From contig CAZGOT010000002.1 in NCBI GenBank assembly GCA_964527495.1, forward strand, positions 1,740-37,900: a stretch of 36,161 nucleotides of DNA. Direction: 5' to 3'. Position 1 is the stretch's first letter, and each line of letters begins with the position of its first letter. This DNA comes from an uncultured Haliscomenobacter sp. Lineage in GTDB: Bacteria > Bacteroidota > Bacteroidia > Chitinophagales > Saprospiraceae. Both the position numbers and the translations under genes were made by a program. The notes beneath the pieces were generated by a model. It did not search any database. It was not told the origin of the DNA and saw only the letters and a program-made list of their open reading frames with translations. Shown one piece after another: positions 11,173 through 30,049 of this stretch.

Positions 11173-12132
11173 TTATTGGTTTGCATTGAACCTTTTGACC
11201 GCCTCAGTAAGCCGGGGCACTACCTCGAAAAGATCCCCCACTACCCCATAATCGGCAGCTTTGAAGAAAGGTGCCTCAGGATCTTTATTGATTACCACAA
11301 TAGTTTTGGAACTATTTACCCCTGCCAGATGCTGAATGGCCCCCGAGATGCCAATAGCGATATACAGATTGGGACGGACTGCAATACCCGTCTGTCCGAC
11401 ATGTTCGTGGTGTGGGCGCCAACCTACATCGGCAACGGGGCGGGAACAGGCTGTTGTCGCGCTGAGGGCTGATGCCAGTTCTTCTACAATACCCCAGTTC
11501 TCCGGCCCTTTCATCCCCCTGCCTGCAGAGACCACTCTTTCTGCTTCGGGTAAGGGGACAATACCCTCCTGGCGGTTTACGGAGCGGAATTTAATCCGCG
11601 ATGCCGGAACCGGGATTTCCAGATTTTCCGGATTAACTGCTTGTCCGGTTATTTCTGGTTGAACGGCATTACCCATTAGCGAGAGCAACTTGACGGGGGA
11701 GTTGATGGCATACGTAGCGATGGCTTTTCCGGAAAAAACCGGCTTGCGCACTCGGAATTCCCCTGAAGCATCCGGAATGGCATTGACGGCGGAAACCGAG
11801 CCCGCATCGAGGCGCGCAGCGAGTCTGCCCAAGACAGCACGGCCGTTAGCCGAATGGCTCAACACTACGGCCTGTGCACCTGTTTGTTGCACTGCCCCGG
11901 CAATGACCGCGGTATAAACCTGTGCATCGAACTGATCCAGGCTTGCATCTGCGATATGATATACTTTTGAAGCTCCGTAACGCCCTAATTCCCCTGACCC
12001 CTCACAGGTTCCGAGTACCAGTGCCGCACAGGGCACACCTAAAGCCTGGGCTGTTTTATACCCATAGGTGACCGATTCGAAAGCCGATTTTTTGAATTGT
12101 CCTTTCTGATGTTCTGCAATAACGAGTACCAT
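11173..12132 (-). CDS. etfA: Electron transfer flavoprotein subunit alpha
   Basis: 319 aa. The C-terminal FAD-binding signature is PNLYIAIGISGAIQHLAGV. It follows etfB. Confidence 0.9.
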   Translation of the reverse strand: MVLVIAEHQKGQFKKSAFESVTYGYKTAQALGVPCAALVLGTCEGSGELGRYGASKVYHIADASLDQFDAQVYTAVIAGAVQQTGAQAVVLSHSANGRAVLGRLAARLDAGSVSAVNAIPDASGEFRVRKPVFSGKAIATYAINSPVKLLSLMGNAVQPEITGQAVNPENLEIPVPASRIKFRSVNRQEGIVPLPEAERVVSAGRGMKGPENWGIVEELASALSATTACSRPVADVGWRPHHEHVGQTGIAVRPNLYIAIGISGAIQHLAGVNSSKTIVVINKDPEAPFFKAADYGVVGDLFEVVPRLTEAVKRFNANQ

Positions 12133-12185
12133 TGTTTGTTGATATTAATGGTTAGAGATTGGGCTAAGAATTTCCTGAAAAAATA

Positions 12186-12929
12186 TCAGATTACTTTTGA
12201 CTCCTCGTGGAGGAGGCGGACCAGCTCGTCCATATCCTCTGCTGCCACCATGCGCACAGCAGATTTGCTCTTGGGCAGCGCGTATTGTATGGTGGTTACC
12301 GGATCTGTTGCTTCTATTGGCTCGAGGACCTGGAGAGGCTTTGATTTGGCCATCATAATACCGCGCATATTGGGAATGCGTTGCTCTGCGAGTCCTTTGG
12401 CCGCACTCAGTACAAAAGGAGGAGAGAGTTCCAGCTCCTCAGTGCCCCCTTCGATATCCCGATAGACCACCGCTGTCCCGGCGTCGGGCATATCCAGTTT
12501 GCTGGCATAGGAAATAAAAGGCAAGTCGAGCAGTTCCGCAACCATAGCCCCAACTTCAGAGCCGTTGTAATCAATCGTTTCTTTACCGGCAAGAATCAGG
12601 TCAAAGCCTTGCTGGCGGGCATAAGCGGCGATTTGTTTTGCGGTGAAGAGGGCACTGCGCGGTTCTGCATTAACCCGCACAGCATCATGGGCTCCGATAG
12701 CCAAACCTTTGCGCAAAATGGCATCGTTTGCTTCTGGCCCTACATTGATCAGGGTTACCGTTCCGCCGAATGCCTCCTGCAACTCGAGGGCGCGCACCAG
12801 AGCGTACCACTCGTCATAGGGATTCATAATATACTGTACCCCATTGCCATCCAGGGAAGTACCATCCCCGTTCAACGCAATTTTAGTGGTCGTATCCGGG
12901 GTTTTACTAACACAAACCAGTATTTTCAT
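12186..12929 (-). CDS. etfB: Electron transfer flavoprotein subunit beta
   Basis: 247 aa. MKILVCVSKTPDTTTKI...NPYDEWYALVRALEL is typical of the EtfB N-terminus. It lies upstream of etfA. Confidence 0.9.
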   Translation of the reverse strand: MKILVCVSKTPDTTTKIALNGDGTSLDGNGVQYIMNPYDEWYALVRALELQEAFGGTVTLINVGPEANDAILRKGLAIGAHDAVRVNAEPRSALFTAKQIAAYARQQGFDLILAGKETIDYNGSEVGAMVAELLDLPFISYASKLDMPDAGTAVVYRDIEGGTEELELSPPFVLSAAKGLAEQRIPNMRGIMMAKSKPLQVLEPIEATDPVTTIQYALPKSKSAVRMVAAEDMDELVRLLHEESKVI

Positions 12930-16793: not shown

Positions 16794-17084
16794 TTTTTTG
16801 GGGTTGTCCCAATAGTATGGGGTTGTGTAAAAAGGCCTAGGGCCGTCATTTGGCGGTTGACGCCGCCAAACAATATTTTGAACGCACACTGTTTTCATTG
16901 ATTTTGCTTCGCAAAATCAATGAAAACAGTGTGCGTTCAAAATTTCCTTTCGCCGCCGAAGGCGGCGGAACACTTTTTACACAACCCCTTTTTAATATTC
17001 TTTGGCGGCTGACGCCGCCAAATGTCATTCGTTCAAAATTTTATTTCGCCGCCGAAAGCGGCGGAATACTTTTTACACAATCCC
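16794..17084 (+). repeat. Mosaic palindromic intergenic repeat, locus 7 (pre-module, one full 170-bp element, then a core-less B1-B2-A' element)
   Basis: A at 16819-16834; B1 at 16849-16870; C arms at 16875-16907 and 16911-16943 (perfect 33 bp, loop ttc); B2 at 16948-16970; A' at 16973-16988, a perfect complement of A. Second unit: B1 at 17001-17022, B2 at 17044-17066, A' at 17069-17084. Confidence 0.92.
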
Positions 17085-17120
17085 TGAATGGCTTATGAGA
17101 TGACCCCGAACAGCAGAAAG

Positions 17121-17672
17121 CTATTCCAGAAATGGCAAAGCCAAGGCAAGAGCCGATAGGCTTTCATACCGAAAATGCAGCCTCTCAGCAGCATTTTCAA
17201 GTTCCAGGGCTTCCTCGGCTTTCCCTTCAATCAAGACCGTACGCATGCCCAGCCGGGAGGCAAAATCCATATCGCTGATAGAATCCCCAACCATCACCGA
17301 CCTGGAAAACTCAATTTCCGGGAAATCGCGTTGCGCCTGCAACGCCATTGCCGGATTTGGTTTGCGGCAATTATCCGGCTTTTCCTTCAGGTCGGGACAA
17401 AAATAAATGCCGTCTATCCTACCGCCTGCCTGCACAATCTCGGATAGCATCCGCTTGTGAATATCCTGGATATCCTCCTCCGTCATCAGTCCCTTTCCAA
17501 TTCCCTGCTGGTTGGTAACCACAATGATACGGCCAAAATACCCTGCAAAAAAGCGGAGTGCTTCCAGGGCACCCGGGATAAACCGGAATTCCCTCCACGT
17601 GAGGACATAACGACCCACCTGGCGATCATTAATAACCCCATCCCGATCTAGGAACAACGTGAATCCTTTCAT
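17121..17672 (-). CDS. HAD-IIIA family phosphatase (GmhB / histidinol-phosphatase-like)
   Basis: 183 aa. Motif I is FLDRDGVIN, motif II is IIVVTNQ, then CRKPNP and a GDSISD motif IV-like region. Confidence 0.7.
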   Translation of the reverse strand: MKGFTLFLDRDGVINDRQVGRYVLTWREFRFIPGALEALRFFAGYFGRIIVVTNQQGIGKGLMTEEDIQDIHKRMLSEIVQAGGRIDGIYFCPDLKEKPDNCRKPNPAMALQAQRDFPEIEFSRSVMVGDSISDMDFASRLGMRTVLIEGKAEEALELENAAERLHFRYESLSALALALPFLE

Positions 17673-17707
17673 TTATAATAATTAACAGGCATCTTCCCCC
17701 GCTTGTT

Positions 17708-18703
17708 TCAGCGGCCTTTTTCCGATTCCAGGATTCGGATATAATTAGCCCGCTCATACGCTTCGGGGTTGGATATGTTGCGCTGGCTCATCACCGCCCT
17801 GAACGATTCCACTGAAGAGAATCCCTGTCTGCGCATCCAGTCTTCCATTTCCTTTTGTATGACGGCCAGGTGTTCAATTCCATATTTGTACAATGCCGAA
17901 GCCGTCATTACGACATCTGCACCAGCGAGCAGGTATTTTATAGCTTCTTCCGCACCCTGTACTCCAGTGGTAGCTGCGAGGGAAACAGGCACTTTCCCAT
18001 ACAAAATGGCGAGCCAGAGCAAAGGCAGGCGGATTTCATTGGCTGTACTGTACTGCAAATCCGAAAGCACCTGCAAGCGTTCGATGTCAAAATCCGGCTG
18101 ATAAAACCTATTGAACAGCACCAGGGCATCCGCACCTGCTGTCGCCATCCGCATCGCCATATTACCCATAGAACTGAAATATGGATTGAGTTTTACTGCC
18201 AGTGGAATGCGCACAGTGCTTTTCAAGATACGGATGATATCCAGATAGCGCTGTTCTACCATTTCCGAACTCAGGCGGATATCCGCAGGGATGTAGAAAA
18301 TATTGACCTCCAGCCCATCAGCCCCTGCTTCTTCCATATCCCGGGCAAAGGTGGCCCAACCTTCGGGTGTAGTCCCGTTCAGACTGGCGATGATCGGAAT
18401 TCCTGTGCGCTCCTTGGCCATGCGGATATGCTCCAGGTATTGATCTGCTCCAAAATGAAATTCCTCTAAGGAAGGAAAATATCCACTGGCCTCTGCAAAG
18501 ACATTAGAAGTGGCAGCCAACAAGGCCTCCCGCCCCATTTCCTCCATGCGGATCTGCTCCTCAAATAAGGAAAAAAGCACCACGGCACCTGCCCCGGCAT
18601 CTTCCATCCGGAGAATATTGTCCAGGTCTTCTGAAAGTGGACAAGCGGATACCACAAGTGGCGAGCGCAAGGGAATACCCATATAATGCGTCCTTAAATC
18701 CAT
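17708..18703 (-). CDS. Dihydroorotate dehydrogenase-like FMN protein (PyrD/PreA-type TIM barrel, no ferredoxin domain)
   Basis: The start at ATG 18703 gives MDLRTHYMGIPLRSPLVVSACPLSEDLDNILRMEDAGAGAVVLFSLFEEQI. This is a DHOD-family fold pattern with a glycine-rich FMN phosphate-binding C-terminal part (ATTGVQGAEEAIKYLLAGADVV). Confidence 0.75.
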   Translation of the reverse strand: MDLRTHYMGIPLRSPLVVSACPLSEDLDNILRMEDAGAGAVVLFSLFEEQIRMEEMGREALLAATSNVFAEASGYFPSLEEFHFGADQYLEHIRMAKERTGIPIIASLNGTTPEGWATFARDMEEAGADGLEVNIFYIPADIRLSSEMVEQRYLDIIRILKSTVRIPLAVKLNPYFSSMGNMAMRMATAGADALVLFNRFYQPDFDIERLQVLSDLQYSTANEIRLPLLWLAILYGKVPVSLAATTGVQGAEEAIKYLLAGADVVMTASALYKYGIEHLAVIQKEMEDWMRRQGFSSVESFRAVMSQRNISNPEAYERANYIRILESEKGR

Positions 18704-18807
18704 ATTTATATTTTTTAAACGCCTTTTGAGCATTGCTTTGAAAGGGTGAAAAATGCTTCGGCCGCCAGAAAGAGATTTTGTTCCTTAACCACTAAGCCCT
18801 CTCCTAA

Positions 18808-18866
18808 GTATTTTGCCTCCTGCTGACAGCTCCCTTGGCTGGCAGGGGAACCTTTTTACACAACTT
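18808..18866 (+). repeat. Mosaic palindromic intergenic repeat, locus 8 (degenerate hairpin + A' box) between the PFOR and DHOD-like genes
   Basis: ggctggcaggggaacCTTTTTACACAACttc, with the A' box at 18852-18864. Compare gggccaggggCTTTTTACACAACtcc at 118-143. Confidence 0.7.
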
Positions 18867-18878
18867 CTATGCGCACAA

Positions 18879-21800
18879 TTACGCCACGGGCGTAAAATCC
18901 GAAGCTTTTTTCGTTGCCATTTCTTCATAGGTTTTCCAGCGCAGGTTAACGAGTTGCTGGGCAAGTTTCATCAACTCCTCCGCTTCAACGGGATTAGTGA
19001 GCGTTAGCTGCCGGTAGCGCATTTCCCGGTACGCATAATCCTTGAGTGCCGTTGTTGGCCTGGGGGAATCCAGGATAAAGGGGTTTTTATCCTTTTTTCG
19101 AAGCTCCGGATTATATCGCAACAAGGGCCAGTAGGCACTTTCCACCGCACGGCGCTGCTGGTCCAAACCTTCCTGCATATTGATGCCGTGGGCGATACAA
19201 TGGCTGTATGCCAAAATCAGAGAAGGGCCGTTATAAGCTTCTGCTTCCCGGATAGCCAGCAAGGTCTGTTGTGGATTAGCCCCAAAAGCCACTCGGGCCA
19301 CATACACATTGCCATAAGAAATCGCCTGCATGGCAAGGTCTTTTTTGCCCACCCGCTTTCCTGCTGCTGCAAATTTTGCCGATGCAGCTGTTGGCGTTGC
19401 TTTAGACATCTGACCACCGGTATTCGAGTATACCTCAGTGTCCAGTACCAGCACGTTGATATTGCGCCCGGTAGCCAGGACATGATCCAGACCACCATAA
19501 CCGATATCGTAGGCCCAGCCATCCCCACCCACCAGCCAGACGCTCCGGTGGACTAATTGGCCTGCCACTGATTCCAATTGTCGTGCTTCGGGGTCTGCAA
19601 TCTCTTTTAGCCTTTTGAGCAATTCTTCTACCTTCTGATACTGGTCCTGAATTTCCGATTCGTTTACCTGAGGGGAACCCATGAGGGCGTCCACCAGGTC
19701 TTGACCGATTTTTGGCGCGAGTTTGCCGAGAAGCATCCCGGCATATTCCATTTGCTTATCCGCCGTAATCCGCATCCCGAGCCCGAATTCGGCATTGTCC
19801 TCAAACAGGGAATTAGACCAACTTGGCCCCTTGCCTTTGGCGTTGGCTGCCCAGGGCGTAGTTGGCAAATTACCCCCGAAAATAGAGGAGCAGCCAGTCG
19901 CATTGGCTACGAGGAGGCGCTCCCCAAACAACTGTGTAAGCAATTTGATATAGGGCGTTTCGCCACAGCCGGCACATGCCCCCGAGAATTCAAACAAAGG
20001 CTCCAGGAACTGCGCCCCATGGACGATGGAGAAGTTGACCCTGCTGCGGTCATTCCATGGCAAAGCTTCAAAAAATCCGATATTCCTGCGTTCCTGCTCC
20101 AGTATTGGCGCTTTATCCCCCATATTGATTGCCTTCCTCGTCCGGTCGTGAGAATCGGTTGCGGGACAGGCTTCGACACAAAGTTCACATCCAGTACAAT
20201 CTTCCAGATAAACCTGCAGGGCATATTTCGTCTCCGGAAAACCCCGCGCATTGATAGGTGCAGATTTAAACCCCTGCGGTGCCTCCTCCAGAAAACCTTC
20301 GTTAAAAAATTTCGCGCGTATCACGCTATGGGGGCATACAAAAGCACAATTTCCACACTGAATACACAATTCGGGTTCCCAAATCGCTACCAGGTCACTG
20401 ACATTGCGCTTTTCCCATTGAGTTGTACCACTGGGAAATGTCCCATCGAGAGGCATTTTGCTGACTGGCAGTTCATCGCCACGGTCGGCCATCATAAGCG
20501 CCGTAACTTCCTTAACAAAAGGCGGAGCAGCCTCCGGAACTACCGCTCCGAGAGAAGTCAGGGAGGTCACCCTTCCGGGTACCTGAACTTCAAACAAGTG
20601 ATCCAAAGTAGCATCAACTGCCTGGAAATTCTTTTCGACTACTGTTTTGCCTTTCTTTTTATACGTTTTTTCAATTGCTCCCTTGATTTGGGCAATCGCT
20701 TCTTCCCGCGGCAACACGCCGGAAAGGGCGAAAAAGCAAGTTTGCATAATGGTATTGATCCGGGAGCCCATACCATTGTCCCTTGCCACAGCAGTGGCAT
20801 CTATAACATAAAACTTCAGCTTTTTATCAATTATAGATTGCTGGATATTACCTGGCAACTGATCCCAAACCGTTTCAGGCGGGAAAGGGCTATTCAGCAA
20901 AAACGTTGCACCAGTTTTCGCCCGCCGCAGCATTTCGACCTTTTGCGTAAAGTTGAACTGATGGCAGGCAATGAAATCAGCCTGGTTGAGCAGATAAGGC
21001 GCCCGGATAGGACTGGGCCCAAATCGAAGGTGCGAAACCGTTCGGGCTCCGGATTTTTTTGAATCATACACAAAATATCCCTGAGCGTACAAAGGTGTAT
21101 TTTCCCCAATGATTTTGATGCTATTTTTATTTGCTCCAACAGTACCGTCAGCACCCAAACCAAAAAACATGGCCTGCGTCCAACGGGATTCATCCAGCGT
21201 GAAGGAAGGGTCATAATCCAGACTGGTAAACGAAATATCATCATTAATCCCAATAGTAAATTGTGTTTTTGGATCCGGCTTTTTGAGTTCATCAAAAATG
21301 CCTTTTACCATTGCAGGGGTAAACTCTTTGGAAGAAAGGCCATACCTTCCCCCACATAATTGCGGTAAGCGGGAAATTTTCCCCTTTTGCAAAGCCAATA
21401 CCAAGGCAGACATCACATCCTGAAACAACGGCTCTGCACTGGCACCTGGTTCTTTAGTCCGGTCCATAACGGCAATTGCCTGTACACTGGAAGGAAGGGC
21501 ATCGAGGAAATACGATGCCGGGAAAGGCCGGTACAACCGTATCTGCAGCACCCCGGTATGCTCCCCCTGCTGATTAAGCGCGAGTGCAGTTTCAACAGCC
21601 GTTTCTCCTCCCGAACCCATCAGGATGATCACCCGGTCTGCCTGGGGGTCGCCAGAATACTCTACAAGGCCGTATTTCCTGCCTGTTACCCCTTCAAACT
21701 TTTCCATTACCTCTGCGACAATACCCGGCGTAGCCTGGTAAAAGGGGTTTACAGCCTCCCTGCCCTGGAAATATACATCGGGGTTTTGGGCAGTACCCCG

Positions 21801-22460
21801 TACAAAAGGCCGATCGGGGTTCATGGCCCGCGACCTATGCGCAAAAACCCCTTCTTCCGGTATCATTTCCCGGATTTGTGCTGCGCTCAGCAAATCCACT
21901 TTATTGACTTCATGGGAAGTTCGGAAACCATCGAAAAAATGCAGAAAGGGAACCCTGGAGCGTAGGCTCGCAGCTTGTGCAATCAGAGCAAAATCATGGG
22001 CTTCTTGTACACTGGCTGAACTCAACATGGCAAAACCGGTGGCACGGGCGGCCATAACATCCTGGTGATCGCCAAAAATTGAGAGTCCCTGGGCTGCCAG
22101 TGCCCTGGCAGCAATATGAAAAACTGTTGGGGTAAGCTCCCCGGCAATTTTGTACATATTGGGCAACATCAGCATCAAACCTTGGGATGCCGTAAAGGTT
22201 GTGGTAAGAGAACCCGTCTGTAGCGCCCCATGCACTGCCCCTGCAGCCCCCCCTTCACTCTGCATTTCAATGACCTCCGGTACGACATCCCAGATGTTCC
22301 GGATGCCCTTTGCTGCCCATTCATCGGCAAACTCTGCCATGTTAGAGGATGGAGTAATAGGATAAATGGCACATACCTCATTCACACGGTAAGCCGTGTA
22401 AGCAGTGGCCTCATTGCCATCAATCATCGCAATACTTTTCTGTTGTTGTGCTGCTGACAT
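18879..22460 (-). CDS. nifJ: Pyruvate:ferredoxin (flavodoxin) oxidoreductase, single-polypeptide NifJ type
   Basis: About 1190 aa from ATG 22460 (MSAAQQQKSIAMIDGNEATAYTAYRVNEVCAIYPITPSS). It has a two-[4Fe-4S] domain (CIQCGNCAFVCPH, CTGCELCVEACP) and a TPP-binding region (GGDGWAYDIGYGGLDHV). Confidence 0.92.
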   Translation of the reverse strand: MSAAQQQKSIAMIDGNEATAYTAYRVNEVCAIYPITPSSNMAEFADEWAAKGIRNIWDVVPEVIEMQSEGGAAGAVHGALQTGSLTTTFTASQGLMLMLPNMYKIAGELTPTVFHIAARALAAQGLSIFGDHQDVMAARATGFAMLSSASVQEAHDFALIAQAASLRSRVPFLHFFDGFRTSHEVNKVDLLSAAQIREMIPEEGVFAHRSRAMNPDRPFVRGTAQNPDVYFQGREAVNPFYQATPGIVAEVMEKFEGVTGRKYGLVEYSGDPQADRVIILMGSGGETAVETALALNQQGEHTGVLQIRLYRPFPASYFLDALPSSVQAIAVMDRTKEPGASAEPLFQDVMSALVLALQKGKISRLPQLCGGRYGLSSKEFTPAMVKGIFDELKKPDPKTQFTIGINDDISFTSLDYDPSFTLDESRWTQAMFFGLGADGTVGANKNSIKIIGENTPLYAQGYFVYDSKKSGARTVSHLRFGPSPIRAPYLLNQADFIACHQFNFTQKVEMLRRAKTGATFLLNSPFPPETVWDQLPGNIQQSIIDKKLKFYVIDATAVARDNGMGSRINTIMQTCFFALSGVLPREEAIAQIKGAIEKTYKKKGKTVVEKNFQAVDATLDHLFEVQVPGRVTSLTSLGAVVPEAAPPFVKEVTALMMADRGDELPVSKMPLDGTFPSGTTQWEKRNVSDLVAIWEPELCIQCGNCAFVCPHSVIRAKFFNEGFLEEAPQGFKSAPINARGFPETKYALQVYLEDCTGCELCVEACPATDSHDRTRKAINMGDKAPILEQERRNIGFFEALPWNDRSRVNFSIVHGAQFLEPLFEFSGACAGCGETPYIKLLTQLFGERLLVANATGCSSIFGGNLPTTPWAANAKGKGPSWSNSLFEDNAEFGLGMRITADKQMEYAGMLLGKLAPKIGQDLVDALMGSPQVNESEIQDQYQKVEELLKRLKEIADPEARQLESVAGQLVHRSVWLVGGDGWAYDIGYGGLDHVLATGRNINVLVLDTEVYSNTGGQMSKATPTAASAKFAAAGKRVGKKDLAMQAISYGNVYVARVAFGANPQQTLLAIREAEAYNGPSLILAYSHCIAHGINMQEGLDQQRRAVESAYWPLLRYNPELRKKDKNPFILDSPRPTTALKDYAYREMRYRQLTLTNPVEAEELMKLAQQLVNLRWKTYEEMATKKASDFTPVA

Positions 22461-22614
22461 CGCAAACTGATTTTGGGGGCTTGTGTGACAAAAATTTTTC
22501 AACTTACCCGGTGCTGTGCTTATAAATCCGTTTCTCCTGCTACTTTCCGGCGCTGAAGGCAGCTTCTTTTGACCGGGGTATAATTTTATACCTCCATTCC
22601 GTTCAGAATGACGC

Positions 22615-24246
22615 TCAGGCCTCTGGTATCATCTCTATGGCAAAGCAAGGACACTGCTCAAAGCATACCGCACAGCCAGTACAAGCCTCATAATCAAATG
22701 TATAGCGCTTGCCAGGTCCAAGTTTAATAATCGCATCTTCCGGACAGGCACCATAACAGCCATCACATTCGAAACAATTTCCACAGCTCAGACAGCGCAT
22801 AGACTCGTAGCGGGCTTCCTTTTCGGACAGGCCTGCAACCACTTCCTCAAAACTTTTGATTGCTACAGCAGGCGGAAGCTTTTCCTGCTCCTGCTGAGGA
22901 GCATCGGTTTTATACCAAAGGTGCATTTTCCGGAACAATGCCGTCCCATGCTTCTCTGGTTTCTGATAAACCTCTCCTTTTAAAAATGCATCTATATATT
23001 TGGCCGCTTTTCTGCCATGTCCAATCGCTATTACCACCCCTCTTTCCCCCCCAATGACATCCCCACCAGCAAAAATACCGGGATAGCCCGTCATACGGCC
23101 TTCATCTACGAGGATGGTGCCGTCTTCCTTAAGCCTGATTCCATCTGCATTTTGTAAAAAAGTAGTATCTGATTCCTGCCCGGTAGCGAGGATAAGGGCA
23201 TCTGCTTCTACGGTTTCGAAAGTTCCAGTGCCCGTGATCTTTCCATTATCCAGTTGCATAATTTCCACCGAAAAGCTGTTACCATCAATTTGCCGGATGC
23301 TACGCAGCAATTGCACATCAATTCCTTCGGCAATCGCATCGTCGGCCTCAAAATCGTAGGCTGGCATCAGCTTTTTGTCGCCACTGTACAAGACCTTGGA
23401 GTCTACCCCCAGTCGGCGCATAACCCTGGACAGATAAAGTGCCAGCTTCCCTCCGCCATAGACGATTACGCTTTTGCCCAAATTAGGCACTTGCCCGATA
23501 GCAAGGGCATGCAAAACTTTAAATGCATCCAGTACCGGGACTGGGTTATGCAGTACAATAGCTTCTCTTTTGCTGGCCTGCGCCCCAATCCCCAGAAAAA
23601 CCGCATCGAATCTTCCTAGCTGTTTTTCTGTCAGCACATCATATACTTTTCGATTAAAGTGAAACCTTATACCCATTGCTTTCAGTCGCCCGATTTCCGC
23701 ATCCCGGATATCTGCGGGAAGCCGATACGAAGGAATCCCAAAATGCAGTAGCCCCCCCGGCTGGTCAAGGGCTTCATAAATTTCGACTGTATGCCCCATC
23801 CTGGTGAGATGGTAGGCAGCAGATAAACCAGCGGGGCCAGCGCCTACTACCAATACCCGTTTTCCCCCTGGAATCGGGGTATAGGCTATTTCCCATTTTT
23901 CTTCTATTCCTTTATCGCCGATAAACCTTTCCACCGCATGGATATTTACCCTTTCGTCAATTTGGGTGCGATTGCACCCGGTTTCACAGGGACGCACGCA
24001 TATCCTGCCGCTAATGGAAGGAAAGGGATTATCTTCCACCAGTTTTTGAAAAGCAGCAAAATAATTTCCGGCCTGGGCATCGGCCAGCCAGGCTTGGATA
24101 TTCTCCCCTGCCGGACAGGCACGGTTGCAGGGCGGAAGAAAATCCTGATAAACTGGTATCCGTGACCGGATTGCCCCGGTGCTTTCGCCATGGTCAAAAA
24201 GATTGGTCGCCTTGGTCAAATCCGCTTCAGGAGAACGCATAAGCAT
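22615..24246 (-). CDS. GltD-like NAD(P)H-dependent FAD/Fe-S oxidoreductase with a C-terminal 2x[4Fe-4S] ferredoxin domain
   Basis: 543 aa. N-terminal Cys clusters (PPCNRACPAGENIQ, RPCETGCNR). Dinucleotide folds VLVVGAGPAGLSAAYHL and VIVYGGGKLALYLSR. C-terminus has CLSCGNCFECDGCYGACP and CTGCAVCFEQCPCFAI. Confidence 0.8.
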   Translation of the reverse strand: MLMRSPEADLTKATNLFDHGESTGAIRSRIPVYQDFLPPCNRACPAGENIQAWLADAQAGNYFAAFQKLVEDNPFPSISGRICVRPCETGCNRTQIDERVNIHAVERFIGDKGIEEKWEIAYTPIPGGKRVLVVGAGPAGLSAAYHLTRMGHTVEIYEALDQPGGLLHFGIPSYRLPADIRDAEIGRLKAMGIRFHFNRKVYDVLTEKQLGRFDAVFLGIGAQASKREAIVLHNPVPVLDAFKVLHALAIGQVPNLGKSVIVYGGGKLALYLSRVMRRLGVDSKVLYSGDKKLMPAYDFEADDAIAEGIDVQLLRSIRQIDGNSFSVEIMQLDNGKITGTGTFETVEADALILATGQESDTTFLQNADGIRLKEDGTILVDEGRMTGYPGIFAGGDVIGGERGVVIAIGHGRKAAKYIDAFLKGEVYQKPEKHGTALFRKMHLWYKTDAPQQEQEKLPPAVAIKSFEEVVAGLSEKEARYESMRCLSCGNCFECDGCYGACPEDAIIKLGPGKRYTFDYEACTGCAVCFEQCPCFAIEMIPEA

Positions 24247-24355
24247 CGTTTTTTACATGCGCTAAATAGTTAATGGGATAAACTTAGCGCAACCAGGACG
24301 TTTTGCCTATGATTTTCGTCACCTGAAAAGGAAAATTTATACCTCTCGCATTCAT

Positions 24356-24441
24356 ATTCCGCCACCTGCGGCGACGAAAGAAAGTTTTGAAGAGGCTGTT
24401 CGAAAAGTCTTTTGGCGGCTTGCGTCGCCAATAATTATTTT
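24356..24441 (+). repeat. Mosaic palindromic intergenic repeat, locus 9 (inverted B2 unit, degenerate A box, B1 hairpin)
   Basis: 24356-24390 attccgccacctgcggcgacgaaagaaagttttga is the reverse complement of a B2 unit. Then gaggctgttcgaaaag (degenerate A). Then TTTGGCGGCttgcGTCGCCAA at 24411-24431 followed by taattatttt, as at 6555-6585. Confidence 0.8.
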
Positions 24442-26651: not shown

Positions 26652-27542
26652 TCAGTACGTCCAGAGATCTTGTTCGAAATTGAAAATATCGTTCTTGATC
26701 TTCTCTGACGCCATCAGGAGGTCGCGGCGGCTGGCGAATTTATCCTCCAGGCGTTCATCTTTCACATTGGAAGCCTTATAGATGTAGCTGGAGAAAAAGC
26801 GCTGTTCCAAAAGGTCTTCCCAGGATAGGGGACTGGCATCGTTCCCCTCATTGAATACCTGCTCGCGGGCAAGGTATTCACGGGCTTCGGGATAATAAAT
26901 CCAGAAGAGTGCTCCTTCGCCGACAACTTCCCCACTGCTGGTCCGCACCTGGGACACTGGCGCAATACCCAGGATGCGCACCTTCATCACTGAGGCCTCC
27001 TTGTCGAAGTAATAAATCTCTTTTATCCGGTAGCGCTCGACAGCCTTAGGATTGAAATCATTCTTGACAATCTTCTTAGAGACCTCAAAAGTTTCTGGAT
27101 TTACATAATCCACCGTATCGACTCTGTACAATTTGGAATAAAGCGTAGCGGTATCCAATTCTGTTTTAAAATCCTCTTCGCTAAAAGCCCGCAAAGGCGG
27201 CAGAGGGTTGTCGGGATCTTCCACGCCTTTTGTAATCATATCCAACATCACCTGGATCAAGGGCCTTTTTTCGTAAGCAAACGGCAGGTTCATTTTTTCG
27301 CGTACATCAATGATACGCCAGACCCGCCTTTTCCAGAAGACATCTGCTTCCCGGGGGGTATCATAAGCCAGGATACGGCGGGTAATCGTCGTCGTTTCCG
27401 TAATATCGTCCAGTGGGGCCGGGCGCAATTGCCGTCCCGACTCTGTCGTCATAATATTACCCGGCAACGATTGCGCTAAAGCAGGCCTGGTGAAAAAGGC
27501 TGCACTAAGGATAAGCACAAGGGATTTCCATGCAAATTTCAT
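26652..27542 (-). CDS. gldN: Gliding motility / T9SS protein GldN (PorN)
   Basis: The ATG at 27542 gives a signal-peptide-like MKFAWKSLVLILSAAFFTRPALAQ. The track start at 27566 is a TTG. It is the last gene of the gldKLMN order, and size and position fit GldN. Confidence 0.8.
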   Translation of the reverse strand: MKFAWKSLVLILSAAFFTRPALAQSLPGNIMTTESGRQLRPAPLDDITETTTITRRILAYDTPREADVFWKRRVWRIIDVREKMNLPFAYEKRPLIQVMLDMITKGVEDPDNPLPPLRAFSEEDFKTELDTATLYSKLYRVDTVDYVNPETFEVSKKIVKNDFNPKAVERYRIKEIYYFDKEASVMKVRILGIAPVSQVRTSSGEVVGEGALFWIYYPEAREYLAREQVFNEGNDASPLSWEDLLEQRFFSSYIYKASNVKDERLEDKFASRRDLLMASEKIKNDIFNFEQDLWTY

Positions 27543-27659
27543 TGGATATTGTGTTTTTATTACCAAAAGAACGGCAATTCCGTCTTAAAATTATAGAGCA
27601 ACATAGTTAAAAGGGATTTTTAACTTTTCCCTCTCAAGTTGCTCTAGCAACGGCTTTTA

Positions 27660-29264
27660 TTACCGGATTTTAAAGACCAGCGAATTGATTTTTCTTGTTC
27701 CCTCATCACCCGGACATTTTGCCCGCACGTTATCGAAAAAGTAGCGGTCGCCTGGCTTTGCCTTATTTATTTCCGCACGGGCTTCTGCACCAAACGATGC
27801 ACCAGGATTGCTGATATCTTTTGGGTCCTGACGGGGTGCCGCATAAATCAGGTTAAAACCTTGGATTGCGCAACGGGCATCAAAATCAAAATTTTCCAAA
27901 ATAGCCACTAAACCTGACTGGGCTTTAAACTCTCCGTTACCGATTTCGCCACCTGCCGAAGTACCCAATTTAGCGACCGGATCTGGTATGCGCTTGACCC
28001 TGAACTTGAAGGTAGTCGGAGGCAAGCCTTCCCCACTGACCACAATTTCGGCATCATTTGTTGGGGATTTCGCCGTAGCAATAAATTTTCCGAGACCATT
28101 GGGCTGCAGGGAAATACCGCCCCCATTAGCAGATACCCGCAACGTGTTGGTTGATACCCCCGAGGCAGCGACGGAAATCGGGTTATCCACGCCGATATAG
28201 AAAACATTCATTTTATCTGCGGAGACCGTTACACTGCGGCGGCCCACTTCGTATTCGAAGACCTTGGAATAGGTTTCCCGCTTTTTGGTCGTCGGATTGG
28301 TGAGCGACACATCCACCTTATACGTCCTCAGGCCAGTATTCGAAGAACCTGCGGTATATTTTGCCACGCCATTTTCTACCTTTAGCGGACGGCCATCAAC
28401 GCTTATAACTACGTTGTCGGTAATAGACTTGGAGCTGGCGCCGACGGATATTTCGGACTCATAATTTTCCCCGGCGATGATATAGCTTTTCCTTGCAGAA
28501 GAAATCGGAATAAACTGGTCCACTTTGAACGTAGTTGCCCCTACCTGTCCGACAAGATAATTGAGGATGGCAGCCTCTGAACTCTTCATATCGTTCTGGA
28601 TCTTGGTCAGGAGCGGGAAGACCGAAGCGAGGGGCATTTGGTTGAACGTATAAGAAGCCCAGTCAATATTCTTATTTTTCTTTTGGGCCGACTTATCTCT
28701 TTTCCATGTATCGTCTACCTTCAGGGAGATACTTCTTTCCAGTTCGGCTACCGTTTCTGCCGTAATTGCGGTACCTGGGGTACCAATCTGGGAGCGCATG
28801 AGCTTCACCAGTTTTTCCCTGGTTTCGTTGATGCGCTGCTCCAACTCTGCCCCCTTGCCTTCGTTTACCAGATAGCGGGTAGTGATATCTTTATTTTTCA
28901 TCCCCTTAGGCTGGCCAGCGTGTTCTTCATCCTCCTCAGCAGTATAATAGCCGCCAGTTTCATTTACCATAGCAGCGCGGAGAGATTCCACATAAGCGTT
29001 GAAATCTGTAGCCGTACTTTTTGTTTCCTGGGCGGCTTTAAGCAGAGGCTGGTAGCGCTCGGCGTCCTGTTCCACACTTTTAGCGAGCGAAGACAGCGCG
29101 AATGCATTCGATTTGTCGAAGATTTCGTTACTGTTCTTGATGCCTCTGTCAATCACGAAAAAGGCATTGATAATTTTGGCAGAAACATTGAGGGCCAGCA
29201 TGGCAGTCAATACCAGATACATGAGGTTGATCATTAACTGCCGGGGCTCCTTTGGAATGGACAT
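27660..29264 (-). CDS. gldM: Gliding motility / T9SS protein GldM (PorM)
   Basis: The N-terminus MSIPKEPRQLMINLMYLVLTAMLALNVS matches the conserved GldM start (..PRQKMINLMYLV..). An alternative upstream ATG at 29312 would add 16 aa. Confidence 0.85.
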   Translation of the reverse strand: MSIPKEPRQLMINLMYLVLTAMLALNVSAKIINAFFVIDRGIKNSNEIFDKSNAFALSSLAKSVEQDAERYQPLLKAAQETKSTATDFNAYVESLRAAMVNETGGYYTAEEDEEHAGQPKGMKNKDITTRYLVNEGKGAELEQRINETREKLVKLMRSQIGTPGTAITAETVAELERSISLKVDDTWKRDKSAQKKNKNIDWASYTFNQMPLASVFPLLTKIQNDMKSSEAAILNYLVGQVGATTFKVDQFIPISSARKSYIIAGENYESEISVGASSKSITDNVVISVDGRPLKVENGVAKYTAGSSNTGLRTYKVDVSLTNPTTKKRETYSKVFEYEVGRRSVTVSADKMNVFYIGVDNPISVAASGVSTNTLRVSANGGGISLQPNGLGKFIATAKSPTNDAEIVVSGEGLPPTTFKFRVKRIPDPVAKLGTSAGGEIGNGEFKAQSGLVAILENFDFDARCAIQGFNLIYAAPRQDPKDISNPGASFGAEARAEINKAKPGDRYFFDNVRAKCPGDEGTRKINSLVFKIR

Positions 29265-29416
29265 AGTCTGGAATTTTTCGGTTGAAAAAATAAGGGTGCG
29301 ACTACCTGCCATGCAAAATCTTTTTTCAGGACCCCTGATGCGCAGATTTTGCTAATCCGTGGATTAAGCGAGGTAGTTGCGGTGTATTAACTGAGGCGAA
29401 AAAAGAAAGATCAGAA

Positions 29417-30049
29417 TTAACCCTGCTTGCTTACACTGGCCATTGCAGCAATTACGCCGCCATAGACATTGTTCAAGGTAGCATAGCTGTTGTTGAGGCG
29501 ACCGATGTTCTTGTTCAACTCGCTCAGGTGATCTTTATAGACTTTAGTCTCCTCCACTGAATCCTGGAGATCGGCCATTGCTTCGTTGAGCTTGGAATAA
29601 AAATTGGTCATAGCCTTGAGCTGGTCTTTTGTACCGGAGAAGTCAACCTCCTGGAGTGCCTTCAGTGAAGAAAGGCTTTTGGACATGACCTGGAGCTCGG
29701 AAAGCATACCGCCGAGTTGTTGTTCTACCACTTCGCCATTGAGCTGTGGTACGGAAGATTTTGCCGTTTCGGCGATACCAACAGGTGCATTGGTCAGTGG
29801 CTCGATAGGCAGGTTGTACTTATCCAGGCCGGGATACAATTTTTCCCAGTAGTAATCCTTCTCGGGGCCGATAATGCCTAAGAAGAAGAACAAGATAGCT
29901 TCTGTAATCATACCTCCGGTCAGCATTTCATCTGCGTAGGGCCAGGACTGGATTTTGAAGAGTGCCCCCAGAAGGACGACTGACGCGCCGACGCCGATCA
30001 AAAGATTTTTGAAGTACTTGAAACCTGCAGATTTTACAAAATTTGCCAT
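29417..30049 (-). CDS. gldL: Gliding motility / T9SS protein GldL (PorL)
   Basis: 210 aa with two N-terminal TM helices (LLIGVGASVVLLGALFKI, GGMITEAILFFFLGII) and a coiled C-terminus. It lies between gldK and gldM. Confidence 0.85.
   Translation of the reverse strand: MANFVKSAGFKYFKNLLIGVGASVVLLGALFKIQSWPYADEMLTGGMITEAILFFFLGIIGPEKDYYWEKLYPGLDKYNLPIEPLTNAPVGIAETAKSSVPQLNGEVVEQQLGGMLSELQVMSKSLSSLKALQEVDFSGTKDQLKAMTNFYSKLNEAMADLQDSVEETKVYKDHLSELNKNIGRLNNSYATLNNVYGGVIAAMASVSKQG

Follow-up and report, generated by a model that had tools for sequence, protein, structure and literature searches.

A conserved pair of pyruvate:ferredoxin oxidoreductase and dihydroorotate dehydrogenase-like genes, joined by a GltD-like flavoprotein gene in an uncultured Haliscomenobacter

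The stretch of DNA analysed here, below called the window, comprises 36,161 nucleotides (nt) of contig CAZGOT010000002.1 (positions 1,740 to 37,900 of the forward strand) in the assembly GCA_964527495.1 of an uncultured Haliscomenobacter sp. (Bacteroidota, Saprospiraceae). The names of close homologues likewise point to Bacteroidota near Saprospiraceae/Haliscomenobacter, and the DNA sequencing runs that contain the window are freshwater metagenomes. We focus on three co-oriented genes, which in the 5' to 3' direction of the minus strand encode a GltD-like flavoprotein (P0001), a pyruvate:ferredoxin oxidoreductase (PFOR, P0002) and a dihydroorotate dehydrogenase (DHOD)-like flavin mononucleotide (FMN) barrel (P0003), see Table 1. 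A preliminary description of the window, made from its letters alone, had placed the three open reading frames (ORFs) where we also find them. Its division into domains, with a C-terminal 2x[4Fe-4S] domain in the GltD-like protein, a NifJ-type PFOR and a DHOD-like protein free of a ferredoxin domain, is borne out by Pfam and NCBIfam, and its gap of 175 nt between the last two genes also stands. The 112 nt that it gave for the first gap applies only if PFOR begins at the TTG at 22502, to which the longest ORF extends; the likely start is the ATG at 22460, from which the gap is 154 nt. The start of P0003, an ATG at 18703, is conserved in four genomes of the same genus.

Table 1. Positions in the window of the three genes, their spacers and the gene that follows them
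Feature	Positions	Strand	Basis
GltD/NfnB-like FAD and Fe-S flavoprotein P0001, 543 aa	22615-24246	minus	NF009410, Pfam
Spacer between GltD-like gene and PFOR, 154 nt	22461-22614	minus	sequence read
Single-chain NifJ-type PFOR P0002, 1193 aa from ATG at 22460	18879-22460	minus	TIGR02176, Pfam
Spacer between PFOR and DHOD-like gene, 175 nt, with hairpin (stem 18831-18849)	18704-18878	minus	
DHOD-like FMN TIM-barrel P0003 (ORF residues 11-341), 331 aa	17708-18703	minus	NF005741, AF2 model
GmhB-like HAD-IIIA phosphatase, 35 nt downstream of DHOD-like gene	17121-17672	minus	TIGR01656 and TIGR01662, both above cut-offs

The central gene of the three encodes a complete PFOR. P0002 scores 1739 bits against the PFOR model TIGR02176 (cut-off 911) and has the full set of Pfam domains, i.e., POR_N, PFOR_II, POR, EKR, two Fer4 domains and TPP_enzyme_C. 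PFOR is central to anaerobic and low-oxygen carbon metabolism, and most schemes show it working by itself, with free ferredoxin as the acceptor.

The DHOD-like protein P0003 belongs to the family NF005741 (PRK07565, 'dihydroorotate dehydrogenase-like protein'), which it matches with 456 bits over residues 11–339 (cut-off 303). A Pfam scan found no ferredoxin or Fer4 domain in P0003, and the chain stops after the barrel. The AlphaFold (AF2) model of the protein has a pLDDT of 89 and a pTM of 0.88. Its best fold matches in the PDB are domain IV of pig dihydropyrimidine dehydrogenase (DPD) and then class 1A DHODs, at 17–20% identity and TM-scores of about 0.65–0.7. A protein-atlas search that excluded PF01180 returned only Dus-like FMN barrels at 0.77–0.78, which is under the useful level. 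From a profile alignment to DPD and DHOD B, and from the columns of 54 family sequences, it can be seen that P0003 keeps the features of an FMN-type barrel: ELN with N134, K171, N198, the GG(V/I) loop at G247, and S269. Three signatures, V-V-x-x-S-L-F-E-E-Q, S-L-N-G and L-V-L-F-N-R-F-Y-Q-P-D, are invariant in the 54 sequences.

The catalytic base of DHOD is Cys130 in class 1A and a serine in class 2. In the family of P0003, the position that corresponds to Cys671 of DPD and Cys130 of DHOD A is variable and holds Y, L, F or S in the 54 members. The scores of P0003 against the models of the pyrimidine enzymes are also low, with 73 bits for PreA (NF006183, cut-off 335), and 83 and 81 bits for the class 1/2 DHOD models TIGR01037 (cut-off 270) and NF005574 (cut-off 269). 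Because the catalytic Cys/Ser is not conserved and the PreA and DHOD scores are far below the cut-offs, we conclude that P0003 is, as far as its sequence tells, an FMN barrel that lacks the pyrimidine-oxidising or -reducing chemistry of DHOD and DPD.

The neighbourhood of the family was studied with an alignment of 43 diverse DHOD-like members and a scan of one genome per species, from which the best 80 loci were analysed. Two genes were called adjacent if the C-terminus of PFOR lies less than 400 nt upstream of the DHOD-like gene on the same strand. By this definition PFOR is found directly upstream of the DHOD-like gene in 66 of the 80 loci. In the subset of 57 loci whose upstream DNA extends to 3.9 kb or more, 48 show the adjacency, one further locus is adjacent although it falls outside the scripted criterion, and three more have PFOR within 5 kb. 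The 80 loci come from more than 12 phyla, among them Cyanobacteriota, Chloroflexota, Acidobacteriota, Verrucomicrobiota, Ignavibacteriota, Actinomycetota, Omnitrophota, Deinococcota, Nitrospirota, NC10, Planctomycetota and Pseudomonadota. No neighbour other than PFOR recurs around the DHOD-like gene in these loci, and a homologue of P0001 is present in only one of them, in a gammaproteobacterial metagenome-assembled genome (MAG).

The same picture is seen within the Bacteroidota. Among 151 genomes of this phylum, PFOR is above its curated cut-off in 86, the DHOD-like family in 60 and NF009410, to which P0001 belongs, in 33. A PFOR match is present in 58 of the 60 genomes with a DHOD-like gene and, outside one family (f32), the DHOD-like gene directly follows PFOR in about 44 of 47 cases. 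The conserved unit is PFOR followed by the DHOD-like gene.

Two deviating arrangements of the DHOD-like gene were observed. In two species of one f32 genus, the gene is unlinked to PFOR and sits a short way upstream of a cyclase gene and a fumarate reductase operon of the frdCAB type (L098 1684–7102; L099). One other Bacteroidota genome contains two tandem DHOD-like genes and no PFOR match (G164 C97 5685–8101); this assembly consists of 150 contigs, and PFOR may be unassembled.

The third protein, P0001, is a member of NF009410 (PRK12771, 'NAD(P)-binding protein'), with 635 bits over residues 9–542 (cut-off 516). Its Pfam domains are Fer4_20 (38–117), Pyr_redox_2 (130–411) and a C-terminal Fer4_21 (490–539). 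The conserved cysteines, C40, C44, C83, C87, C91, C485 and C488 together with two CxxCxxCxxxCP motifs, are enough for about four [4Fe-4S] clusters. The models of GltD and of the small subunit of glutamate synthase (GOGAT) score far below their cut-offs. The nearest relatives in the PDB are 9bov_A, 9n5u_A (a 963-residue 'NfnA'), 8oh5_C (StnC) and 5jca_L (NfnI-L), with E-values from 2e-73 to 3e-60. The alignments with NfnI-L and StnC span about 390–460 residues (E 3e-60 to 2.5e-70), while the match to DPD (1h7x) is far weaker (E 2e-25). The opening segment of NfnI-L (residues 19–57) aligns weakly with residues 462–502 of P0001 (0.6 bits, not significant alone), and a permuted domain order, as in the StnC type, is hinted at.

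The YRR motif of the NADP(H) site is found in all five PDB relatives and reads YSGD in P0001 and its subfamily; G289 and D290 are conserved. The usual Rossmann rule reads a YRR-type site as a motif for the 2'-phosphate of NADPH. From YSGD we infer only that NAD(H) may be at least as likely a substrate of P0001 as NADP(H).

Paralogues of NF009410 elsewhere follow DsrAB-like genes, and proteins of this family therefore behave as a modular NAD(P)H/Fe-S wire that serves different partners. In the Bacteroidota family f32, such a paralogue (577 residues) is encoded directly after two DsrA/DsrB-like NIR_SIR genes (L094 3661–7829; L095, L096). This arrangement is kept in three genomes of two genera, with a gene for a NarI-like membrane protein nearby, and could represent a sulfite-reductase-like system linked to NAD(P)H. 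A different combination is seen in P0457 (L105 1086–3659), a protein of 857 residues in which a DHOD-like barrel (1–326) is joined to an NF009410-like module (335–856) by a link of eight residues. The barrel of P0457 scores 275 bits against NF005741 and 199 bits against PreA. Its gene adjoins a phosphoglycerate dehydrogenase gene on one short contig of one public run.

The preliminary description had seen in the two flanking genes the halves of a DPD, placed around PFOR. Taken literally, they would be a genuine split DPD of the PreT/PreA type, a DHOD or a glutamate synthase subunit acting on pyrimidines or glutamate, and the position of PFOR between them would be mere chance. In cofactors and domains the two proteins do equal DPD (pig enzyme, 1H7W; PreT/PreA in E. 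coli). P0001 and P0003 in sum hold the same FAD, NAD(P)H site, four [4Fe-4S] cysteine motifs and FMN barrel; the N-terminal Fe-S domain of P0001 is Fer4_20, 'DPD domain II', and is followed by the GltD-like FAD/NAD(P)H module; and DPD domain IV is the best match of the FMN barrel, with a TM-score of about 0.7. However, the 2x[4Fe-4S] domain sits on the barrel in DPD and PreA, while it sits on the GltD-like chain here. The family of P0003 does not conserve Cys671, P0001 aligns better with the NfnB/StnC type than with DPD (E 1e-70 versus 2e-25), and PFOR is encoded between the two genes. The low PreA and DHOD scores of P0003, the lack of a conserved catalytic Cys/Ser and the low GltD/GOGAT scores of P0001 all speak against such an enzyme, and neither GltB nor pyrimidine-catabolic genes were found nearby. 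Moreover, adjacency to PFOR is the rule across phyla rather than an accident. In most phyla the DHOD-like gene follows PFOR with no GltD-like gene beside them, and the GltD-like gene joined in one clade only. What remains of the split is the combined cofactor set and the fold of domain IV, and we regard a true split DPD at this locus as highly improbable.

The full trio is found in five of the 151 Bacteroidota genomes, as well as in a Rhodothermia MAG that was fetched separately, where the two gaps are 87 and 25 nt. In three Chitinophagaceae loci the GltD-like gene overlaps PFOR by 11–14 nt, and the gap between PFOR and the DHOD-like gene is 15 nt in two of them and 212 nt in the third. The three-gene order is conserved and tightly coupled in these relatives, so the refuting condition named in the preliminary description, a gene order not conserved outside this genome, does not hold.

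In FastTree trees of 54 loci, for which three of the six trios were chosen through P0001 homology, the six trio PFORs form one clade with a support of 100. The members are the window, the three Chitinophagaceae, the Rhodothermia MAG and the gammaproteobacterial MAG, i.e., they come from three phyla. This clade is nested among the pair-type PFORs, apart from the other PFORs of Bacteroidota, and the six DHOD-like proteins of the trios likewise form one clade with a support of 100. The trees fit a scenario in which the GltD-like gene was recruited once, to a pair that already existed, and the trio was then inherited and transferred as a whole. On this topology, the GltD-like gene came later, and in one clade only (Saprospiraceae, Chitinophagaceae, the Rhodothermia MAG and the gammaproteobacterial MAG).

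The relatives of P0001 also bring up another reading of the trio, as a flavin-based bifurcating or confurcating complex. Electrons would then bifurcate at the NfnB-like FAD of P0001; PFOR would form the low-potential branch, and the high-potential one would lead over the FMN of the DHOD-like protein to quinone or another acceptor. The nearest solved relatives of P0001 are bifurcating or of the Nfn type (8oh5_C StnC, 9n5u_A NfnA and 5jca_L NfnI-L), and its two separate cluster sets, the N-type clusters and the C-terminal ferredoxin domain, could serve two branches. NfnA is a PyrK-type FAD/[2Fe-2S] protein, and class 2, quinone-dependent DHODs carry an N-terminal extension. P0003 resembles neither of them. 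It is a PyrD-type FMN barrel, not a PyrK-type protein, which makes the published analogy between the DHOD-like protein and NfnA wrong, and it has no class 2 N-terminal extension, as the match to the DHOD profile starts at residue 1–3 of 331. Further, P0001 does not keep the Nfn-type YRR motif for NADPH, and most pairs of PFOR and DHOD-like genes have no GltD-like partner. Although a bifurcating complex has been proposed in print for propionibacteria (PMC7650540), we consider it quite unlikely for the trio.

The spacers of the window bear on whether the genes are transcribed together. Within the genus, the spacer between PFOR and the DHOD-like gene varies from about 32 to 175 nt, and that of the window is the longest. 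The preliminary description had noted a repeat module at 18808–18866 in this spacer. The feature is a local hairpin with its stem at 18831–18849 that lacks a U-tract on the coding strand. It does not qualify as a dispersed repeat, since a search of the genome gave only the self-match and one chance match of 19 nt. A sigma-70 promoter scan gave fewer sites than in shuffled sequences, with a consensus that does not cover Bacteroidota promoters. One metatranscriptome contig covers 18710–19035, i.e., the 3' end of PFOR and nearly the whole spacer, and another contig from an RNA library bridges the junction of the DHOD-like and GmhB-like genes (17537–17876). These RNA data are short, near-identical contigs of one metatranscriptome, located on PFOR, on the spacer and on the junction of the DHOD-like and GmhB-like genes, that carry no information on strand, ends or level, and none of them falls on 22080–23857, a region on which they are uninformative. 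The contig over the spacer between PFOR and the DHOD-like gene is weak evidence of co-transcription, as libraries of this kind can contain DNA.

Long spacers would also agree with three proteins that are co-regulated and work separately. PFOR would then reduce free ferredoxin or flavodoxin, P0001 would be a ferredoxin:NAD(P)+ oxidoreductase in soluble form, comparable to SfrB or NfnB, and the DHOD-like protein an independent FMN enzyme acting on a small molecule that is made or needed when PFOR is active. This is consistent with the unlinked genes in f32 and with the other partners that NF009410 proteins serve. One close homologue has the database name 'NADPH-Fe(3+) oxidoreductase subunit beta', and a strictly conserved, pocket-like signature in the DHOD-like protein (R199, N198, E48/E49) could bind a substrate. 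The very tight adjacency or overlap in relatives and the inheritance of the trio in one clade, however, suggest more than loose co-regulation. In addition, genomes that have the DHOD-like gene nearly always have PFOR as well (58 of 60), and the protein has no conserved acid or base at the catalytic position of DHOD. Three separately working enzymes are, in our judgement, unlikely.

With a little more confidence than doubt, we suggest instead that the trio is a protein-bound redox unit, possibly an operon, that couples pyruvate oxidation to NAD(P)(H) and is built on the old two-gene unit. PFOR would oxidise pyruvate and pass single electrons along its three [4Fe-4S] clusters. The FMN of a DHOD fold regularly faces an Fe-S cluster of a partner, which is PyrK in DHOD B and the dicluster domain in DPD and PreA. 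Since P0003 has no Fe-S domain and the PFOR chain contains a ferredoxin-like dicluster domain, PFOR would be the supplier of its electrons. The FMN of P0003 could take them from this domain, as the barrel of DPD or PreA does from the fused 2x[4Fe-4S] domain. P0001 has FAD, a site for NAD(P)H and two N-type clusters, and a 2x[4Fe-4S] domain is tethered to it; this protein would most likely wire the chain to pyridine nucleotide. The order of the cofactors might be pyruvate, thiamine pyrophosphate (TPP), the PFOR clusters, FMN and/or the clusters of P0001, FAD and NAD(P)+. In sum, the complex would act as a pyruvate:NAD(P)+ oxidoreductase or, with electrons flowing in the opposite direction, as an NAD(P)H-driven pyruvate synthase that needs no free ferredoxin. 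It would be a multi-subunit analogue of 2-oxoglutarate:NADP+ oxidoreductase (KGOR) and of pyruvate:NADP+ oxidoreductase (PNO). The dedicated path between PFOR and NAD(P)(H), put forward in the preliminary description, thereby appears to be the most plausible function, and KGOR offers a precedent for it from biochemistry.

Several points weigh against this proposal. Free ferredoxin or flavodoxin is the normal acceptor of PFOR, and our data are compatible with such use. An FMN in mid-chain between Fe-S clusters would be unusual. As most lineages with the DHOD-like gene have no GltD-like partner, the role of the DHOD-like protein cannot depend on P0001; within the Bacteroidota, NF009410 is not above its cut-off in 40 of the 60 genomes that have a DHOD-like gene. 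Family f32 has all three genes, unlinked. At 154 and 175 nt, the spacers of the window far exceed those of its relatives, which makes separate promoters possible. For this window, we infer the complex from gene context.

Fusion proteins, which could have given Rosetta-stone support, do not help the proposal either. A search for longer proteins found about 50 ORFs that join parts of PFOR to a DHOD-like protein, and these were rejected as support, being mostly frameshift artefacts of high-GC or long-read assemblies. In P0398, P0421 and P0423, out-of-frame stretches rich in Arg, Gly and Pro replace the C-terminal third of PFOR, and P0413 lies within a PFOR that is broken into three ORFs (L104 3–4296). 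The only clean in-frame fusion of PFOR to the DHOD-like protein, P0396 (1566 residues, L103), is a singleton.

A broader and more tentative idea concerns the pair itself. A large class of PFORs, found in oxygen-respiring and facultative bacteria of more than 12 phyla, could have the DHOD-like protein as an obligate subunit that has so far gone unrecognised. This subunit would take the electrons of PFOR pairwise at FMN and pass them to a two-electron acceptor. In the trio clade they would go via P0001 to NAD+ rather than NADP+, and such PFORs would be independent of ferredoxin, or bifurcating. We hold this idea to be doubtful in its full extent, though possible. The heme-copper oxidase PF00115 is found in 136 of the 151 Bacteroidota genomes and does not discriminate their lifestyle. 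No reported function was found in the literature searched for the DHOD-like gene that trails PFOR in cyanobacteria, Chloroflexota, Acidobacteriota, Verrucomicrobiota, Bacteroidota and others. Should the partners form a complex, pyruvate oxidation would have to be given another electron acceptor and another energy balance in the metabolic models of many PFOR-carrying aerobes.

The GmhB-like gene downstream of the DHOD-like gene is also present in two genomes of the same genus only. It was not found at the other trios examined, i.e., in the Rhodothermia MAG and the three Chitinophagaceae loci. It may be co-transcribed here, outside the conserved unit. The surrounding genes are unrelated (GldLMN, helicase, patatin, Smr and ETF); among them, the genes of electron transfer flavoprotein (ETF) alpha and beta and the gldL-gldM-gldN cluster for gliding motility and the type IX secretion system (11173–12929 and 26652–30049) are ordinary-looking.

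The block of four genes is bracketed by G+C-rich hairpin repeats (TTTGGCGGCTGACGCCGCCAA and a 37-nt unit) at 16849–17084 and 24355–24440, in inverted orientation. In a freshwater DNA run, the depth of these repeats is about 3200 and 590, compared to 24 for the block, and the contig of that run ends exactly at the repeats (17051–24398). They look like a dispersed element of the REP (repetitive extragenic palindrome) kind that breaks assemblies. Joints that skip about 7.3 kb (17084/24411) were considered as a deletion variant and rejected, as their sides are shorter than 30 nt and lie inside the highly repeated element.

The arrangement is already known from the literature, and the window is a further instance of it, not a new system. 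In Propionibacterium and Acidipropionibacterium, PFOR (nifJ1) lies between a 'glutamate synthase small chain-like' gene and a 'dihydroorotate dehydrogenase-like' gene (McCubbin et al. 2020, PMC7650540). The three genes are co-transcribed and co-regulated there, a knockout of PFOR cripples growth, and the authors postulate a bifurcating complex with a quinol-oxidising subunit (PMC7650540). Judging by the gene descriptions in that paper, the same kinds of genes stand on either side of PFOR as in the window, in a different phylum. The pair has its counterpart in the nifJ operon of Synechocystis sp. PCC 6803, sll0741-sll0743-sll0744, which is one transcription unit (TU3296) induced together under low oxygen and whose last gene is annotated as 'dihydroorotate dehydrogenase (fumarate)' (PMC11368403). 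Likened by this annotation, the operon fits the pair of many cyanobacterial loci in our set; it differs from the trio in having no GltD-like gene and a hypothetical gene in between. A functional study of sll0744 was not found in the literature search. What is new here is the analysis of the trio clade, the change from YRR to YSGD, the DsrAB-like context of the NF009410 paralogues, and the finding that the database fusions are mostly artefacts.

Two further groups of enzymes resemble the trio in part. In NfnAB and StnABC, the NADH-dependent ferredoxin:NADP+ oxidoreductases (5JCA, 4YLF, 8OH5), the large subunit resembles P0001 (E 3e-60 for NfnI-L), while P0001 differs in its YSGD and its extra C-terminal 2x[4Fe-4S] domain. 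A gene for a partner of the NfnA/PyrK type was not found in the cluster or the neighbours examined. In PNO of Euglena and Cryptosporidium, an FMN/FAD module of the cytochrome P450 reductase type is fused to a PFOR. The enzyme carries out the net reaction that we propose for the trio, using pyruvate, CoA and NAD(P)+ without free ferredoxin. The module has a different fold and origin from the partners in the trio, and the two systems are analogous, not homologous.

In gene content the trio also resembles KGOR and the phenylglyoxylate:NAD+ oxidoreductase PadEFGHI. The KGOR of Azoarcus evansii was reportedly described by Ebenau-Jehle et al. in 2003 as a 2-oxoglutarate:NADP+ oxidoreductase with a core of the 2-oxoacid:ferredoxin oxidoreductase (OFOR) type and an FAD/Fe-S subunit that reduces NAD(P)+ directly. 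The flavoprotein subunit KGOR-alpha has been placed among the GltD/NfnB homologues (PMC10134865). Likened by their descriptions, both enzymes combine an OFOR core with a GltD-like FAD/Fe-S subunit, and the same gene content is found in the window and its relatives. They differ from the trio in their multi-subunit core and in acting on another 2-oxoacid, and they have no DHOD-like FMN subunit.

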